From Eledone cirrhosa (Eukaryota), in contig OZ024746.1 in assembly GCA_964016885.1 (NCBI GenBank), forward strand, positions 34,286,001 to 34,350,000: a DNA stretch of 64,000 nucleotides, read 5' to 3'. Every line of letters begins with the position of its first letter. Within the stretch, counting starts at the first letter, position 1. The notes under the pieces are model-generated. The model was not told where the DNA came from. It did no database searches and was given only the letters and a program-made list of their open reading frames with translations. Shown here piece by piece: positions 3,611-56,808 of this stretch. The translations under genes were made by a program, and so were the position numbers.

Positions 3611-4972
3611 GGTCACTTAAAGTTACACGAAAAGTTGCTGTTATAAAAGAATAATGCCAATGTAGATATCTAAGGAGACTAAAATGTTACGATAAATTTG
3701 TTAGTGAAAAACATATATATGGAATTTACATCTATGAAAAGAATATAAATTAATTTAAATTAAAATAATATAAATTAATTTAATTGATGGGTATATTTAT
3801 ATTGATAAAATTATATCAATGCATATATATATATGATAAATAAGAGTTAGATGTAATTGAAGAGTGCTGTTAAAGATGAGGGGAAACAAAAAAAATATAA
3901 AAGGAATATATATACATATATATATATATATAATTATTTGGGGGGGGGGGTAAATTTATTAGTGAGAAATAATAAATATATAGACATTTTAAGGAACATA
4001 GAATCATAACCTGAAATTAAAACATTATATATTTTTACTTAATGGTATCAATTTTAGGAAAAGATAGTTGTAAGAAGGAAAGTAAAATTATGTAGTTCAT
4101 CAGTAGTAGAATATTAATTATAGGTTAACTGAATTAAAAAAAGTTTTTATATTAATTTCTAAAATGTATATTAATTAGATTTATAATGTTTAAAGGTTTT
4201 TCTCAGTTTATGATTACACGATATTATTAATTCCTGTCGCTTATTTAATAGGATATCCTTGCATTTCATTATTTCAAAAAGTTCTTGGGAACACAATCTA
4301 CATTCATATCTATTATTGTGATAAAGCGTGGCCCTTTTGAGCACACTCCAGGTCAGGTCATAATCTATATTCCTCTTTCTATAATTATTAATTATTTCAG
4401 CTAGAGATGTTGTATTAGCTAATGCGGCATTTTAAAAACTATGTTTGTGGGTATTAAATCTTACTTTAAATTGGTTAGAGGTAGCTCCTATATATGAACA
4501 AATTGAGTCCTTAGTGTTAACTTTACATTTATATACTGTTATTAACAAGGCAAGTTCCTTTTAATGGGCAGTTTGCTTTGTTTCTACAGTTACAACTTTT
4601 TGTGAATCCTGTATCAGAGGGGATATTGTGGTTAGTTTGATGTACTGGTGGTATACTCATGTTTTTTTTTACATTTACATGCATTGTAGGCACTTATATT
4701 TTGTTTTATGTTTTTGATTGTTGAGTAGGAGAATTTAAGCGTTGATCTATTTAAAATTTGATGGTATTTGTGGTTTGGCGGGAAGTTCTTCTCTAGGATA
4801 TAACATTTTTTTTTAGGTATATTATCCTTAATTTGTAAATTAAATGGAGCATTATACCTCGTCTATTACGGTTTCGATGTTGTTTATTGTTTTTATAGGA
4901 TGTATCATTAGATCTATTGATTTAGGTGTTTTAGCTTGTTTATTAGGAGTTTTATTATTAACATTTATAAGA

Positions 4973-8454: not shown

Positions 8455-8945
8455 AATATAGCTTAAGAGAAATATGACAATGATGATATGATAGGCACCC
8501 AATATTTTGAACTGGTTTACAGAATTCTCTTGGCCTTTGTCACTCTAAGTAGAGCTTTAAAGAATTAGCTTTTAAAGAATTTCTCTTTTCTTTAAATCTA
8601 TCAACCATGACCGACCCCTAACCATCTTATATACACCTGAAATATAGGCATTGTTAGCTGAAGAGAAACTTAAAAATAAGGAGTGGCACCAATTCTGAAC
8701 ATGTTTATAGAATTCTTTCTGCCCATGTCAGTCTAAATATAAATTACTGCCTTAAAGAATTAGCTTTTAATGAATTCCCTTTTCTTTCAACCAATGACCT
8801 CCATCCATCCCACTCTCCCCCCTCTCCTACCACCTGAAAAGATATAAATACCACAACATTTAATTTTGGAAAGCCAGTCTACTGAGGATTTCTAAAGAAT
8901 GAAACTGTTCTAGTCCTGTAGAATCTCATCTATATTAAAACTTCT
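8455..8945 (+). mobile_element. Dispersed repeat with internal diverged ~190 bp duplication and degenerate minimal HHR (8877-8915)
   Basis: GUCUA-CUGAGGA-UUUCUAAAGAAU-GAAACUGUUC-UAG. Homologous to 1609-1968. Confidence 0.7.
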
Positions 8946-16060: not shown

Positions 16061-16097
<37 letters not shown>

Positions 16098-16208
16098 AAA
16101 GTTATATTTAAATTGTTGGGTTACAACTAGTAAATATTTATAACTGATATAAAAGCACTCAACAAGTATTTGGAGTATATTTACGATATTAAATAAATGG
16201 AAACTATA

Positions 16209-16311
16209 TTTATAAAACCATATCTATTTCATTATATATATTTCAGGGATATCATATTAACAATATGTTATGCCTTCTTCAGACAAAATACAATATAGAC
16301 AGTTTTATAAA
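16209..16311 (-). ncRNA. Type I hammerhead ribozyme in PLE 3' pLTR
   Basis: UAUUUUGU-CUGAAGA-AGG..CCU-GAAA-UAUAUA-UA/AUGAAAUA. Stem I extends via UUUAUAAAAC/GUUUUAUAAA. Confidence 0.75.
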
Positions 16312-17576
16312 TAAATAGATTTGACATACCGTTCAACATCGACTTGTATTTGAAAAAGTAGATTTGGCAGTGAAAAATTGTAAACAGAAAGAAAGAAAGA
16401 AAGAAGGAAAGAAAGAAAGAAAACGAAGAAAAAGAAGAAATGCATGCAACTAAATAGAGAGATGGAAAGATAGATAAAGAGAAGAACTTCATGTAAAGAA
16501 ACAGAGAGAGATATATAGAGAAAGGAAATAGATAGAGATAGATATATATAGTGAAAAGTAGGTAGTTGAACATCCGTTGAATGACGTATCAATGATACAT
16601 TTATTTATTTATTTATTTATTTAGCTCTAGTATTAATGTAAGGGAGATATATGTGGTTAGGAGAGAAACCAGCCGTTATATATAGAGAAAAAATGAAAAG
16701 TAACCAGACATAGGCGAGGCAGAATTTAAAAACCCTATGTTTCAATGTAGAAATATTAGTTCGTATAAAAACCAGGCACTATAATGTAAATATCAGTATT
16801 CATGAATGAGACACGTATCTATAATGTGTGAAAAGTAATGATCTTATGTCTAGTTTTAAAAATTCATATGTTTATATGATAACTACAAACATCGATGTGA
16901 ATTTACGTGATCAACTCTGCAAACTTCTATTTCACACGGAGAACATTCTCATTGTGCTATAAAAATTTAAGTATACATATATGTGTATATATACACATAT
17001 ATATAGAGTCTATATTAATTTTAACAATACTATTCTTGTCTTTACTTTACCTGATTATCTATCAAGCAGAAATAGAGAACAGATTTCAATATATTAATAA
17101 ATATATCAGAAACAAAAACAAAAAATAATAATAATAAATAAATAAAACAGAAAACTAAAAAATATTACATATTAAAAATAAAAATATTAAAAATATTAAA
17201 AAATATTAAAATAATAAAAATAAAAACATAGTATGCCACGCAAATCGACCACAAAGATCAACCCTTCAAAATTAATTGACAATATATAAGCATCAGAGTC
17301 GAAAACAGATAAAACTAAAAATGATTTACCAAATCACGTCTAGCAGAAATCATTTCAAAAGTTTAGGATACCCATTTGGTCTACATATGTTCTTATATTT
17401 AATATAGAAGTTTATCTAGTGTAACATTTATTCGATATATTTGGAGCATCAACTTTTAGGGTAGTTTAATTTTTCCTGAAGAATGTTTAAAATAAAAATA
17501 AAAAGAAGAATAAAAAGAAGAAATCAAAAGATTTATCGGCTAGTTTCCTAAATAATTACAAATCAAACTAAATATA

Positions 17577-19769
17577 CTACATTTTAAATTTAAATTTATA
17601 TTTAAAAGTTGAGTTCAATCTATGTTTGCAGCAACTGAATAAATTTGTCCGTAGATTAAGGGAATTTTTAGATTTTAGTATAAAGAATATCTCCTCCGCG
17701 CAGAGGTCACATGTCTCAGAGGATGAATTAAAAAGAATCCCTCTTTAGACTATATTCCAAGCCGTCGAATATCTAACGTTATCTTGTCTAAGTTGCCAGA
17801 GTACGCCTGATAGTGCTGTTGAAGATTTTTTGCTTGGATCTGTGAAAGAATTCTTGTGGTTATTATAGCGAAGTTTAAATTCCGTCGATGTGGAACCAAC
17901 GTAGTTAAAAGAATTAGAGTCCGTTTTAACATTACAGTTGTATATTATATTTTTAACTAAGCAGTTGTTATTTAACGGACATTTAGATCTATCTCTACAG
18001 TTACATTTGTTAACTTGTATATTATTTATGCTATTATCGCTAGGTTTTAAGTTCCTATTATTTATTCTATTAATATTTTGTGCTAAATTTTTGGTGGATG
18101 AGTAGATTAATTTTATAGTATGTCTATTGAAAATTGAGTGATACCTATGTGTTCTAGGGAAGCGATTATCAAGAGCTTTAAAAAATAGTTTAGCGATGTG
18201 GGTTTTAATGTTTAGTGAGAAAGGGGGGGCAAACCATATTATGTTCCTAGTTCTATTTCTTTTTTGGCTTTTGGAATTATTGTAATGCTTTCTATTATAG
18301 TTGTTAAGGTTGTTATTTTGTTTAGTTTGTCTATCATTATCTATGTACATAATTTTATCACTATATCCTGCTCTAGCTAACGCTTCATTGTAGTACTGGG
18401 CTTTTTCGTCGAAAATCTTTCTATTAGACGAGATTCTAGAGATACGTTTTTGAACAGAGTTTACTATAGTATTTTTAACAGATCTGGGGTGGTTAGAGTT
18501 AAAGCTGACATAGTTTAAGTTTTCATTCAACTTGTGAAATGGATAGTGAAGACATGTGTTTAGATTTAATGTTATATCTAGGAAATTGACTATTCTATGG
18601 TTGTTCTCAATTTCTATTTTTAGATTAAAGTAATTAAAAAATTGTGTAATTTGTTTTCTTTTTCTATTTAGTTCAGAGTTATTATTAGCAATAAGTAAAA
18701 GCATGTCATCTCTATATAAACCTCCGGTAGTACCAGGTATTTTCCTATGCAGCGAATTGATTAAAAATAAGCCCACAAGGTCAGTTACCTGAGCTGAGTC
18801 GGATGATCCCATAGTAATGTCAAAATTGCTATCTCTATCTGCTCTGGTCCATAGTTGGTCATTAAATTCTATCAATGTTTTCCTAGCCGATAATATAATG
18901 TGCATTTCATTGCTAGTTAGGTCTGTATGTTTGAATGCGTAATTTAGTGCCTTATTTAGTAGATTAGGGGTAATAGAAGAATAATAGTTAGCAATATCAA
19001 GTTGAATAAACTTATTATTATTGTTATATTTAATTTGCTTAAACCACTCAACAACCTCTCCAGTTCCCTTCCACAAGCTCAGGTTAGGTAAACAATCCAA
19101 GTTTTTAATTTGCTGTATCACCCTGTCAAGAATGTTTTTGCTTAATTTACCCAGGTCCGATTTTGATGGTGCGATCAATCTAACTGGCATGTCATTTTCA
19201 AAATTCCTTTTGTGATCTTTCATATTGATCTTCGGTTTCCTGGGCACAAAAGGTTGTGTTCTGCTCTCAATTTCCAACTCGTGCATTATACAAGATGCTT
19301 CAACATTCATTTTCTCAAGCTCGGCCTTATCTGCTACCTTGTACTTTTTCCTCAGTTCTTTCAGTATGAGGCCATTATACATGTCTTTCTGCACTCCATA
19401 GAGGTTGTTGGTCTTGTCAGATTTCACCAAGATCTTCTCAGTTTTCTCTAAGCTCTCAATATTATCCTTAATGCCTTTCAGATATTCCTGGTCTTTGAAG
19501 TTTCTCTTGAATTTGACTCCTTTTATGATAGAAATTATATCGTTTTCAAAGTCAGATAAAAGTTTATTAGGGGGTGGATTTCTTTTAGATTTGAAAACTT
19601 TGTTTAAGTCCGAGACATTTTCATTTATATTAGATTTATCAAAGTGGAATGCTCGCCACCTGATTCTCCTTATAAAAGAGTCAGATTTATCTATTAATTG
19701 TTTTATAAAGTCTTTGTTTCTAGGTAGAGGTATGTCTTTTAGAGAGGAAGTAATCTTAAAGAATTCCAT
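17577..19769 (-). pseudogene. PLE reverse transcriptase-GIY-YIG endonuclease ORF with one in-frame TAA
   Basis: 674 aa ORF with RT motifs (QLDIANYYSSI, ITMGSSDS, GLYRDDML, FLDITL), a CNCR..CPL..CL linker and GIY-YIG (NIIY...YVGST..FKLRYNNH). After TAA at 17745-17747 the same frame continues for 55 aa (RGILFNSSSETCDLCAEEIFFILKSKNSLNLRTNLFSCCKH...) to TAG at 17577. Confidence 0.93.
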
Positions 19770-21180
19770 TTTTTTCAGTTATAATATAAAGCGCTCAACA
19801 GTATTGGAGTAAGATACGTGGACAGTTATATTTAAATTGTTGGGTTACAACTAGTAAATATTTATAACTGATATAAAAGCACTCAACAAGTATTTGGAGT
19901 ATATTTACTAGCCGATAATATTTTGGAGTATATTTACTAGCCGATAAATCTTTTGATTTCTTCTTTTTATTCTTCTTTTTATTTTTATTTTAAACATTCT
20001 TCATGAAAAATTAAACTACCCTAAAAGTTGATGCTCCAAATATATCGAATAAATGTTACACTAGATAAACTTCTATATTAAATATAAGAACATATGTAGA
20101 CCAAATGGGTATCCTAAACTTTTGAAATGATTTCTGCTAGACGTGATTTGGTAAATCATTTTTAGTTTTATCTGTTTTCGACTCTGATGCTTATAATGAA
20201 CTTGGCAATATATTGTCAATTAATTTTGAAGGGTTGATCTTTGTGGTCGATTTGCGTGGCATACTATGTTTTTATTTTTATTATTTTAATATTTTTTTAT
20301 ATTTTTAATATTTTTATTTTTAATATGTAATATTTTTTAGTTTTCTGTTTTATTTATTTATTATTATTATTTTTTGTTTTTGCTTCTGATATTTTTATTA
20401 ATATATTGAAATCTGTTCTCTATTTCTGCTTGATAGATAATCAGGTAGAGTAAAGACAAGAATAGTATTGTTAAAATTAATATAGACTCTATATATATGT
20501 GTATATATACACATATATGTATACTTAAATTTTTATAGCACAATGAGAATGTTCTCCGTGTGAAATAGAAGTTTGCAGAGTTGATCACGTAAATTCACAT
20601 CGATGTTTGTAGTTATCATATAAACATATGAATTTTTAAAACTAGACATAAGATCATTACTTTTCACACATTATAGATACGTGTCTCATTCATGAATACT
20701 GATATTTACATTATAGTGCCTGGTTTTTATACGAACTAATATTTCTACATTGAAACATAGGGTTTTTAAATTCTGCCTCGCCTATGTCTGGTTACTTTTC
20801 ATTTTTTCTCTATATAACGGCTGGTTTCTCTCCTAACCACATATATCTCCCTTACATTAATACTAGAGCTAAATAAATAAATAAATAAATAAATGTATCA
20901 TTGATACGTCATTCAACGGATGTTCAACTACCTACTTTTCTCTATATATATCTATCTCTATCTATTTCCTCTCTCTATATATCTCTCTCTGTTTCTTTAC
21001 ATGAAGTTCTTCTCTTTATCTATCTTTCCATCTCTCTATTTAGTTGCATGCATTTCTTCTCTTTCTTCGTTTTCTTTCTTTCTTTCCTTCTTTCTTTCTT
21101 TCTTTCTGTTTACAATTTTTCACTGCCAAATCAACTTTTCAAATACAAGTCGATGTTGAACGGTATGTCAAATCTATTTA

Positions 21181-21283
21181 TTTATAAAACTGTCTATATT
21201 GAATTTTGTCTGAAGAAGGCATAACATATTGTTAATATGATATCCCTGAAATATATATAATGAAATAGATATGGTTTTATAAA
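21181..21283 (+). ncRNA. Type I hammerhead ribozyme, copy in inverted pLTR
   Basis: CUGAAGA at 21210 and GAAA at 21248. Near-identical to 16209-16311. Confidence 0.72.
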
Positions 21284-21307
21284 TATAGTTTCCATTTATT
21301 TAATATC

Positions 21308-21388
<81 letters not shown>

Positions 21389-32102: not shown

Positions 32103-32316
32103 AAAGAATAGAGGTGTAACACACAAGTTATTATATATTGGTAAACGGAATAGAAAATGGTGACAAATTGTTCACAGTGAAAAATAGTTTAATTAGGAAT
32201 AAGTGAGAATTAGTAATATTATTGGTTAGTATTCAGTTTTGGCTTTAAGTTTTACCGGTTGCGCATTTCTAATGCTTTTCAAAAATAATTTTGAGATAGA
32301 GCGTCCGTGATGTTTG

Positions 32317-37736: not shown

Positions 37737-37791
37737 CATTTTATTATACATATTTCAGATGTACAACAGTACATCCTCATCAGACAAAATA
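37737..37791 (-). ncRNA. Type I hammerhead ribozyme
   Basis: UAUUUUGU-CUGAUGA-GGAUGUAC UGUU GUACAUCU-GAAA-UAUGUA-UA/AUAAAAUG. Confidence 0.85.
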
Positions 37792-39250: not shown

Positions 39251-39822
39251 TTCTTCTATAGATAGTTATAAGATAATGCAATATTAAAGGCCATTAATGT
39301 TTTTACCTGTTGATTATATACATCTGACAACCAAGTTTTTAATGGTTAAGTGTTTCTCTCTCTTTTGTTCTCGTTTTGTGGGAGGCTAAGAATGTGAACG
39401 TAGCTTTATGGAGGCAACTAGAGAATAATTCACTTTTTTTGTTAATTAGGGTATCATCGTTATTAATAATCAACAGTGTCTCTATTGTACAGGGCGCGCA
39501 GTTATTTGATAAACTAGAGTTGCGGTAACCTCCACAGTTCCGAGGTTTTGTCCAAAGAATGGAGTATTTTAAATTCCTCTCTTTTAATGACCATATGAGC
39601 TGTGATAAAGACGTGGATGATTTCGTCTTGGAGTTCGAGAATGAGCATTTATGGTTCGCAAATTTGGCTTTAAATGTAGAAGAAGTCGATCCTATGTAGT
39701 TTTGTGATCAGTTTTTACGGTGCATGAATAAACCAAATTACTATCTAGACAATTATTTTGCAAAGGGCAAACAGTTTCTTCGTTTCTTATATATATATAT
39801 ATATATTCTATATTCTATGTCT

Positions 39823-41711
39823 ATATTCTATGTCTATATTCACATATATATCGCTATTTCAGAGCATTTATTCCAATTTCTAATTTCTGCCGGACCGGCA
39901 ACCGCTCTTTCAAACCAGTTCCTGTACACAGCTAAGTATTCTATAAGTCTCTAGCTGTGTCATTCTCGATAAAAGCACTGGATATGTAGTCCTGATGATT
40001 TCTAACAAGAATGAAACGCGTAGATTACTTCCCTTGCTTTTATCGAGAATCTAATTGTAATACGTGACGTATTCTATTCTATAGCAATTAGGTCTTCAAA
40101 ATGTTTATTATAAACATACAGAATATTTTCGAATATTCTATGTCTATATTCACATATATATCGCTATTTCAGAGCATTTATTCCAATTTCTAATTTCTGC
40201 CGGACCGGCAACCGCTCTTTCAAACCAGTTCCTGTACACAGCTAAGTATTCTATAAGTCTCTAGCTGTGTCATTCTCGATAAAAGCACTGGATATGTAGT
40301 CCTGATGATTTCTAACAAGAATGAAACGCGTAGATTACTTCCCTTGCTTTTATCGAGAATCTAATTGTAATACGTGACGTATTCTATTCTATAGCGATTA
40401 GGTCTTCAAAATGTTTATTATAAACATACAGAATATTTTCGAATATTCTATGTCTATATTCACATATATATCGCTATTTCAGAGCATTTATTCCAATTTC
40501 TAATTTCTGCCGGACCGGCAACCGCTCTTTCAAACCAGTTCCTGTACACAGCTAGGTATTCTATAAGTCTCTAGCTGTGTCATTCTCGATAAAAGCACTG
40601 GATATGTAGTCCTGATGATTTCTAACAAGAATGAAACGCGTAGATTACTTCCCTTGCTTTTATCGAGAATCTAATTGTAATACGTGACGTATTCTATTCT
40701 ATAGCGATTAGGTCTTCAAAATGTTTATTATAAACATACAGAATATTTTCGAATATTCTATGTCTATATTCACATATATATCGCTATTTCAGAGCATTTA
40801 TTCCAATTTCTAATTTCTGCCGGACCGGCAACCGCTCTTTCAAACCAGTTCCTGTACACAGCTAAGTATTCTATAAGTCTCTAGCTGTGTCATTCTCGAT
40901 AAAAGCACTGGATATGTAGTCCTGATGATTTCTAACAAGAATGAAACGCGTAGATTACTTCCCTTGCTTTTATCGAGAATCTAATTGTAATACGTGACGT
41001 ATTCTATTCTATAGCGATTAGGTCTTCAAAATGTTTATTATAAACATACAGAATATTTTCGAATATTCTATGTCTATATTCACATATATATCGCTATTTC
41101 AGAGCATTTATTCCAATTTCTAATTTCTGCCGGACCGGCAACCGCTCTTTCAAACCAGTTCCTGTACACAGCTAAGTATTCTATAAGTCTCTAGCTGTGT
41201 CATTCTCGATAAAAGCACTGGATATGTAGTCCTGATGATTTCTAACAAGAATGAAACGCGTAGATTACTTCCCTTGCTTTTATCGAGAATCTAATTGTAA
41301 TACGTGACGTATTCTATTCTATAGCGATTAGGTCTTCAAAATGTTTATTATAAACATACAGAATATTTTCGAATATTCTATGTCTATATTCACATATATA
41401 TCGCTATTTCAGAGCATTTATTCCAATTTCTAATTTCTGCCGGACCGGCAACCGCTCTTTCAAACCAGTTCCTGTACACAGCTAAGTATTCTATAAGTCT
41501 CTAGCTGTGTCATTCTCGATAAAAGCACTGGATATGTAGTCCTGATGATTTCTAACAAGAATGAAACGCGTAGATTACTTCCCTTGCTTTTATCGAGAAT
41601 CTAATTGTAATACGTGACGTATTCTATTCTATAGCGATTAGGTCTTCAAAATGTTTATTATAAACATACAGAATATTTTCGAATATTCTATGTCTATATT
41701 CACATATATAT
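39823..41711 (+). repeat. Tandem array of ~6.1 x 310 bp units, each with a hammerhead ribozyme (retrozyme-like)
   Basis: CGGACCGGCA recurs at 39891, 40201, 40511, 40821, 41131 and 41441. I see only two substitutions among units (40086, 40555). Flanked by (TA)n. Confidence 0.97.
39962..40050 (+). ncRNA. Minimal type I hammerhead ribozyme (also at 40272, 40582, 40892, 41202, 41512)
   Basis: GUAGUC-CUGAUGA-U UUCU AACA AGAA U-GAAA-CGCG-UA^GAUUAC. Distal stem I AUUCUCGAUAAAAGCA/UGCUUUUAUCGAGAAU is a perfect 16 bp. Predicted cleavage after 40022. Confidence 0.92.
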
Positions 41712-41769
41712 ATATATATATATATGAAACGAAGAAACGAAGCAGGCTGTGTGGTTACTGTAAACAAAG

Positions 41770-56424: not shown

Positions 56425-56428
<4 letters not shown>

Positions 56429-56504
56429 ACGGCCATATCACGCTGAAAATACTGGTTCTCGTCCGATCATAGAAGTTAAGCAACGTCGAGCCTAGTTAGT
56501 ACTT
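56425..56504 (+). pseudogene. 3'-truncated 5S rRNA pseudogene (first ~80 nt)
   Basis: GTTTACGGCCATATCACGCTGAAAATACTGGTTCTCGTCCGATCATAGAAGTTAAGCAACGTCGAGCCTAGTTAGTACTT, then (TA)n. Confidence 0.9.
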
Positions 56505-56519
56505 ATATATATATATATA

Positions 56520-56808
56520 TATAAGGAAAAAAGATGAAATCAAAATGCAACTGGTGTCTTTTCTTTTTAAATATATATATTTATTTGTTTCCTTTACCGG
56601 TTCGCAGTTCTTCTGCTTTTCAAAAGTAGAATTGAGATGGAGGGTTTGTGGTTTTTCACACATCTGTGAGAAAAACCACAAACCCTCCATCTCTATTCTA
56701 CTTTTGTAAAGCAGAAGAACTGCGAAACCGGTAAAGGAACCAAATAAATATATATATTTAAAAAAACAGACTCCAGTTGCATTTTAGATTTCATCTTTTT
56801 TCCTTATA
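56520..56808. repeat. Near-perfect palindrome, ~140 bp arms
   Basis: Centre GAGATGGAGGGTTTGTGGTTTTTCACA-CATC-TGTGAGAAAAACCACAAACCCTCCATCTC. Arms extend to TAAGGAAAAAAGATGAAATC / GATTTCATCTTTTTTCCTTA. Confidence 0.93.

Follow-up and report, generated by a model that had tools for sequence, protein, structure and literature searches.

A young hammerhead retrozyme family in Eledone cirrhosa, probably written into (TA)n sites by a Penelope-like enzyme lapping a small RNA circle

We analyzed a 64,000-nucleotide (nt) stretch of the Eledone cirrhosa genome (GenBank assembly GCA_964016885.1, contig OZ024746.1, positions 34,286,001 to 34,350,000, forward strand), hereafter the window, in which positions 39823 to 41711 hold a tandem array of 310-bp units with a hammerhead ribozyme motif in each. 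The array is likely an insertion of a young non-LTR (long terminal repeat) retrozyme, written by the reverse transcriptase (RT)-endonuclease of a Penelope-like element (PLE) as it lapped a predicted 310-nt RNA circle. Retrozymes are a known class; the family itself is real and new, with unusually clean mechanistic footprints. The papers cited here propose, without demonstrating it, that PLEs mobilize animal retrozymes via circular RNA, and they leave open how the inverted repeats and tails of PLEs arise. The family provides about 2,000 near-identical footprints free of open reading frames (ORFs), with a strict rule of one arm per start site, and the same rule is seen in an autonomous PLE of this genome. 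Its 310-nt template, with two named start positions, is directly testable in vitro.

Anatomy of the window array

Tandem Repeats Finder placed the array at 39823-41711 (period, 310; 6.1 copies; 99%), and two substitutions in total, at 40086 and 40555, separate its six full units. The unit has a GC content of 34%, and the longest ATG-initiated frame in the array is 30 amino acids (aa) on the plus strand and 17 aa on the minus strand, in agreement with a preliminary description of the array as near-identical 310-bp units without an ORF. The unit therefore has the size and composition of a non-LTR retrozyme, that is, a short (about 150 to 450 bp), noncoding, low-GC tandem unit, and does not contain the RT and GIY-YIG ORF of an autonomous PLE.

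A type I hammerhead had been proposed for every unit, and the core and stem I are indeed present in six of six. The first motif (39962..40050, plus strand) comprises a 16-bp distal stem, an internal loop, a 6-bp stem I, a 4-bp stem II closed by a U.U mismatch, and a palindromic stem III. Its core begins at 39992, and the six cores follow at 310-bp spacing (39992, 40302, 40612, 40922, 41232, and 41542), with predicted cuts after 40022, 40332, 40642, 40952, 41262, and 41572. The stems fold as described: stem I (6 bp), the internal loop, and the distal stem (16 bp, perfect) together gave a z score of -5.63, and 0 of 200 shuffles were as stable. Two copies of the stem III palindrome are predicted to form a 6-bp duplex of -7.5 kcal/mol. 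The Rfam check suggested for the motif did not confirm it, as no ribozyme family reached gathering level in the array; the best ribozyme match was a subthreshold one to Hammerhead_HH9 (19.2 bits, E 0.066, against a gathering score of 52).

Unit coordinates are counted from the predicted hammerhead cut, with +1 at 40023. The insertion (39823..41711, plus strand, 6.1 units) is truncated at its 5' end at +111 and ends at its 3' end at a position that we call site A (+139). An internal copy of site A (+126 to +139) lies at 40148..40161 (plus strand) and corresponds to the end of one arm in every two-armed insertion described below, a putative first internal RT start. The following "tail" (+140 to +172; 40162..40194, plus strand) ends in site B, where the other arm ends and where a second RT start may lie. 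The terminal site A of the window insertion (41698..41711, plus strand) joins the target through the unit's own ATATATAT, and, as had been noted, the array merges there into an (AT)n tract, which occupies 41712..41725. At the other end, a (TA)n target tract (39788..39806) is followed by a 16-base junction (39807..39822, plus strand) composed of short recopied pieces of the +111 to +126 region, a patch that suggests slippage or templated insertion and that resembles the inner junctions of two-armed copies at sampled loci L083, L082, and L158.

The 5' (TA)n tract borders an older PLE endonuclease fragment of Hydra type (39339-39787, minus strand) at that fragment's truncated 5' end; the fragment is part of the host site and lies outside the retrozyme. 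We considered this GIY-YIG fragment as the ORF or second arm of the element and rejected it, as it is broken, lies on the opposite strand with (TA)n between, and is absent from other insertions. The two flanks have a 13-nt inverted match in common (39775-39787 and 41726-41738), adjoining the (TA)n tracts.

A young and dispersed family

The exact core pattern matched the genome 13,317 times and its reversed control 0 times, and at least ten chromosome-scale contigs carry near-identical units. At ∼6.7 motifs per insertion, these matches correspond to an estimated 2,000 or so insertions; one exact site-A pattern was matched by 1,417 arm ends. Identity to the window units is mostly 97 to 100%, which indicates that the family is young. 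The possibility raised at the outset that the array occupies a single locus is thereby refuted, and the dispersed copies, set against an empty control, rule out a local satellite. Nor do the copies have the features of a classical satellite (few large local blocks with random ends), being small dispersed arrays with fixed ends. No LTR was present in 118 parsed insertions; dispersed dimer-to-multimer arrays without LTRs are as expected of non-LTR retrozymes. The family is also deeply covered in contigs of a public sequencing run. Three sequencing runs of unspecified kind hold one 340-letter contig, which is equally compatible with a circle and with tandem DNA. No RNA dataset was listed as a holder of the sequence, a result that bears neither way on expression.

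Two arms ending at two fixed sites

From contig C1 we took 115 regions, in order of position, by means of matches to the motif, site A, and site B; the window brought the total to 116 regions. These held 118 insertions, of which 97 were two-armed, 19 were one-armed, and 2 were cut by a region edge and excluded from end counts. Two-armed copies are head-to-head arrays with their 3' ends outward, and all 97 pair one end at site A (+126 to +139) with one at site B (+159 to +172). The site-B end fell at +165 in 65 of 97 B arms and at +167, +170, or +172 in most others, and the offset between the two sites is typically 26 to 33 nt. No A+A or B+B pair occurred among the 97, although the search patterns would have caught such pairs. 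The same pairing was seen in all 11 two-armed insertions among 14 loci chosen by the ribozyme motif alone and in ten two-armed loci from a BLAST search, mostly on other contigs. One-armed insertions ended at A in 17 cases, including the window copy, and at B in 2; the window thus holds the less common, one-armed form.

AT-repeat sequence flanked 211 of 215 outer ends; most loci had been selected with AT-flanked patterns, and the 14 motif-selected loci agree. The preliminary description had anticipated dispersed, variably permuted arrays in (TA)n. The dispersal and the (TA)n setting were borne out, and the outer ends proved to lie at two fixed sites instead of being permuted. No target-site duplication was discernible at the head-to-head double arrays.

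The 96 inner junctions showed microhomology of 1 to 5 nt (50 cases), insertions (27), blunt joints (13), or longer overlaps (6), with overlaps of 16 to 17 nt at a few of them. The longer insertions were mostly recopied pieces of the unit. One junction, in L084 (1399-1670), holds 272 nt of GC-rich foreign sequence caught between the arms. An apparent recurrent inner junction at +65 was discarded as an artefact of ranking by top BLAST match, since it was absent from position-ordered samples. Arms average about 1.4 kb and reach 8.5 kb.

Penelope-like features and the autonomous Penelope-like families of the genome

PLEs are characterized by an inverted 5'-truncated copy, a one-sided tail, and a (TA)n bias (PMC8557442), and inverted copies are also described in PMC3846280. 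In vitro, two internal RT starts 30 to 40 nt apart define the PLE tail, and the enzyme, a predicted dimer, cuts and extends both target strands (PMC11167929). The retrozyme insertions have each of these footprints: an inverted 5'-truncated second arm in 97 of 116 fully seen insertions, a one-sided tail in all 97 A+B pairs (typically 26 to 33 nt here, 30 to 40 nt as published), and a (TA)n or AT-rich target. Taken together, the fixed positions of both ends, the inversion of the arms, and the AT-repeat flanks support the earlier proposal of PLE-type mobilization at (TA)n.

Two young autonomous PLE families, one of Hydra type and one Neptune-like, are present in the genome, both with the motifs described for their clades. 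The Neptune-like family has 784-aa frames and 15,547 candidates (for example, L241 [G000:C5:17086000-17095999] and L206-L235). Its two-armed copies showed A+B pairing in 11 of 11 cases, with a tail of 31 to 36 nt, and a simple pattern search found no canonical hammerhead in the 1.5 kb after the ORF. The Hydra family gave 44,539 first-look candidates, with many copies encoding frames of about 745 aa at 96 to 100% identity, and has a tail of about 81 to 90 nt. One young Hydra-clade copy lies in the window itself (16095-21316), where a 677-aa frame with one stop (17745-19778, minus strand) is bounded by 1.38-kb inverted end repeats, with hammerhead motifs of its own at 16282 (minus) and 21210 (plus) and (TA)n on both sides. 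Pfam gave no match for the Hydra-type ORF. The label "Naiad" was ruled out for this element by its C-terminal endonuclease, and its motifs fit Hydra.

A search for the unit's motifs in 575 kb of flanking sequence and Hydra loci matched only a sister retrozyme family, and a search of the Neptune loci matched nothing. In the sister family, whose units are about 320 to 330 nt long, the +65 to +200 module recurs (0 of 1,000 shuffles as good), as do the two ends (L126, L170). Its hammerhead is different, with U3-A8 in place of the C3-G8 core pair. As the +65 to +200 module is common to both families despite their different hammerheads, it is likely the recognition signal. Sister copies lie at L170 6550-7250, L155 7200-7900 (minus strand), and L126 3070-3560 and in L173, L180, and L006.

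A probable single circle copied from two starts

Among 81 insertions with at least three full units, we distinguished 30 haplotypes, many of them seen once, and each haplotype was fixed across the units of its insertion. Both arms carried one haplotype in 37 of 39 insertions (shuffled mean, 5.5; maximum, 13). Stray changes occurred at 4.2e-4 per base, and in laps covered by both arms, 90 of them were unshared, versus 3 loci with in-register sharing. The simplest reading of the haplotypes, stray changes, and junctions is that one monomer circle was copied from two starts. Rolling-circle copying of a monomer, as first suggested for the window array, thus gains indirect support from haplotype uniformity.

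Several observations weigh against this reading. The ribozyme is predicted to be weak, with a U.U mismatch closing stem II (a stem that forms with a probability of about 13%) and a monomeric stem III of at most 2 bp around a 2-nt loop (pair probability, 0.0). None of the fixed variants fell in the 11 core positions where 1.1 were expected (p 0.32); with so few expected, selection on the core is not demonstrated, and we dropped core conservation as proof of it. In vitro, one of nine Xenopus retrozyme dimers was cleaved (Li 2026, 10.64898/2026.07.22.740005), and an anole PLE used unprocessed RNA as its main substrate (PMC11167929). In both arms of L140, the haplotype changes once two laps are complete; L127 and L114 each have one in-register change common to both arms; and L098 changes state within one arm. 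Some insertions may derive from multimers or may have been converted later. Variants are also repeated in the long arrays L078, L083, L084, and L121, which suggests later DNA-level turnover. Arm lengths fit an exponential distribution only roughly (Kolmogorov-Smirnov p 0.016), and the lengths of paired arms are weakly correlated (rho 0.24). With regard to sampling, contig C1 supplied all but one of the 116 regions, and most were chosen by an exact end pattern.

Alignments of the end modules to Neptune and Hydra were at shuffle level (453, 407, and 965 of 1,000). At L237 (700-1500), a Hydra-type end repeat and two retrozyme laps of like orientation meet at about +188, forming a chimera that possibly arose by a template switch between RNAs. 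For these two reasons, no helper is named by sequence. Tail length favors the Neptune-like family, which we regard, by a slight preference, as the likeliest helper; the Hydra family is a considerably less probable candidate, and an unseen PLE is the remaining alternative.

The best-surviving alternative to a circular template, which we consider unlikely, is PLE twin priming on an uncut linear multimer transcript of the parent array, with the ribozyme mostly idle and no circle needed. It would account for the changes that the two arms of L140, L127, and L114 show in the same register and would suit a weak ribozyme, the eight of nine uncleaved Xenopus dimers, and the unprocessed substrate of the anole PLE. 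Three sharing loci are nevertheless few beside 90 unshared changes. Moreover, the fixation of new variants in every unit of both arms, across 30 haplotypes, requires a bottleneck of one unit followed by re-expansion, and arms extend to 8.5 kb, while linear copying could only shorten arrays.

If the template were instead a cut linear monomer, a tandem would form only if the enzyme, on reaching the template's 5' end, jumped to a 3' end again and again. No ligase would be required, and template switches do exist (the L237 chimera, the L084 patch, and the L140 haplotype switch), but the junctions make this scheme decidedly improbable. Inner 5' ends are spread evenly around the unit (p 0.43) and are not piled at the cut, with 4 of 192 within 5 nt of it. 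The cut site was crossed 1,022 times (counting only reads with an intact upstream anchor), revealing four haplotype-level forms, 5 stray point changes, and 0 lap-to-lap indels. Jumps in a mixed RNA pool should also mix haplotypes, and mixing is rare.

The second arm might also be a self-primed fold-back of the first, as proposed for inverted PLE copies (PMC3846280), or the arrays might have grown from monomers by unequal exchange at the DNA level, with palindromes arising later; local amplification has been suggested for retrozyme tandems (Li 2026). The few junction overlaps of 16 to 17 nt and the repeated variants of long arrays are in keeping with such processes. However, a fold-back copy is never longer than its template, yet the longer arm was A in 47 of 96 insertions and B in 49, so that fold-back copying is excluded as the general route. 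Neither arm mirrors the stray changes of the other, and DNA-level growth leaves the 97 of 97 A+B ends unexplained. We consider both schemes largely refuted and their probability very small. Microsatellites are also targets of long interspersed nuclear elements (LINEs), which produce 5' inversions as well, and LINE-like frames occur in the flanks, but a LINE-type enzyme with L1-style twin priming is scarcely credible given that both primers sit at fixed internal sites of a template without an end or poly(A) and that an autonomous PLE of the genome follows the same A+B rule; a mere local satellite or assembly artefact, which belongs at the same bottom rank, conflicts with the dispersal of the family and its deep coverage in the public run.

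Proposed mechanism

Under the preferred reading, that of a PLE enzyme lapping a monomer circle, arrays would be transcribed and neighboring hammerheads would pair via the palindromic stem III, cutting out monomers. A host ligase, as in other animals, would then close each monomer. A PLE protein, probably a dimer, would bind the +65 to +200 module and cut both strands of (TA)n. One DNA end would prime at A and the other at B, 26 to 33 nt apart on the same RNA; the two positions are visible as a footprint in the insertions, and a PLE is the presumed enzyme. Each arm may then run for a variable number of laps, to about 1.4 kb on average. Finally, the cDNA ends would be joined by microhomology or small templated patches, as the footprint of the inner junctions displays, to give head-to-head arms. 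Where the second arm fails, the first would be joined directly to (TA)n, as in the window copy. If this reading is right, it also describes a natural DNA-writing reaction of rolling-circle, double-ended type.

A more specific version, whose chances we put at about even, holds that the two active sites of a PLE dimer prime from both ends of the (TA)n break on one ribozyme-made circle and that A-to-I edits of the circle are heritable. If true, a dimer acting on one circle would account at a stroke for the tail and inverted repeats of PLEs and for the tandem arrays of retrozymes. Single A-to-I edits in the circle's ribozyme stem would be carried into every unit of a new array, making editing a source of heritable mutation for the family.

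A>G changes in the ribozyme stem

An A>G change at +276, in a UAG context within stem I, was found in 849 units. It occurred at 14 loci among the first 100 matches, on five backgrounds and roughly in proportion to background frequency, and the control, a wobble-preserving C>T change in stem I, was present in 8 scattered single units. Overall, A>G made up 10 of 22 independent fixed changes versus 8 of 73 stray substitutions (Fisher p 0.0009), a count that drops indels and haplotype-defining changes and in which the changes taken to define a haplotype were the analyst's choice. ADAR enzymes have a base preference, and RNA editing is heavy in cephalopods. We lean toward the explanation that ADAR edited the folded RNA before it was copied. 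Weighing against it, the comparison has only one control site, and selection for tolerated wobbles may also have produced the pattern. At L098, G at +276 is present in all units of the A arm and in only the last two laps of the B arm, and at L104, one unit is reverted at +276 within the insertion. The idea that such single-unit reversions represent inosine read as A was abandoned, as L104 is the one true case and L236 proved to be a change at the next base.

Relation to known systems

The metazoan retrozymes of Cervera and de la Pena (2020, PMC7229834) are likewise noncoding, low-GC tandem units of about 300 nt with a type I hammerhead. Among the axolotl motifs, HHR_Amex2 also has a U.U mismatch at the base of helix II, HHR_Amex1 also has a palindromic helix III loop, and both work better as dimers. 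The Discussion of that article proposes PLEs as helpers and circles as the RT template. Its main text contains none of the words "inverted," "microsatellite," and "octopus," whereas the present family, similar by description, consists mostly of head-to-head double arrays with two fixed (TA)n ends. Li, Clavereau, and Pollet (2026, 10.64898/2026.07.22.740005) also link retrozymes of similar unit size to PLEs. Their link is drawn from co-occurrence and homology to the PLE pseudo-LTR (pLTR), whereas ours comes from insertion ends, and comparison with two PLE families of this genome detected no pLTR homology. They suggest local amplification for tandems and state that the mechanism is open.

Poseidon of Anolis (Frangieh et al. 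2024, PMC11167929) similarly has two internal starts 30 to 40 nt apart downstream of a hammerhead, an AT-rich target with both strands cut and extended, and a predicted dimer. In that study, the strands showed no difference in start site and inverted copies were unexplained, whereas here each site is used once, at opposite ends, and the retrozyme is nonautonomous and multilap. The Neptune and Hydra PLEs (Craig et al. 2021, PMC8557442) also have an inverted 5'-truncated second copy, a one-sided tail, and (TA)n targeting but, unlike our unit, encode the RT-endonuclease. The tail is ascribed there to endonuclease resolution of an intermediate, whereas our insertions are in keeping with two priming sites.

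Plant LTR retrozymes and viroid-like circles are also hammerhead-processed small circles, as is predicted here. The plant elements, as summarized in Li 2026, have type III ribozymes, LTRs, and Gypsy helpers, and viroid-like circles have RNA-to-RNA replication and, usually, ribozymes on both polarities; nothing of either kind is indicated in this family. When both strands were scanned for the motif, the array gave no hammerhead core in minus orientation. The preliminary description's term "replicon" therefore overreaches, as there is no sign of RNA-to-RNA replication, the minus strand lacks a core, and the copies are thousands of DNA ones. Our literature search found no paper that describes this 310-nt family, the ends of retrozyme insertions, or the rule of one arm per site, although subscription papers, Repbase or Dfam entries, and supplements may hold such reports.

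Other elements in the window and sampled loci

Solitary hammerhead-like motifs, each with a U.U-closed stem II like that of the unit and with TA-rich sequence after it, occur in the window at 8882 (plus) and 1670 (minus) and in L145 and L247; these probably represent a third family. Further minimal hammerhead motifs at 37783 (minus) and 46855 (minus) probably lie in end repeats of other PLE-type elements. The Hydra-type endonuclease fragment at 39339-39787 is frameshifted, as is a second one at 4339-4847 (minus). A site-B end of the Neptune-like family is present at 32164 (minus). Finally, positions 56425-56542 hold a 5S rRNA-derived sequence (Rfam, 42.3 bits) that runs into (TA)n and is either a pseudogene or a 5S-headed repeat.
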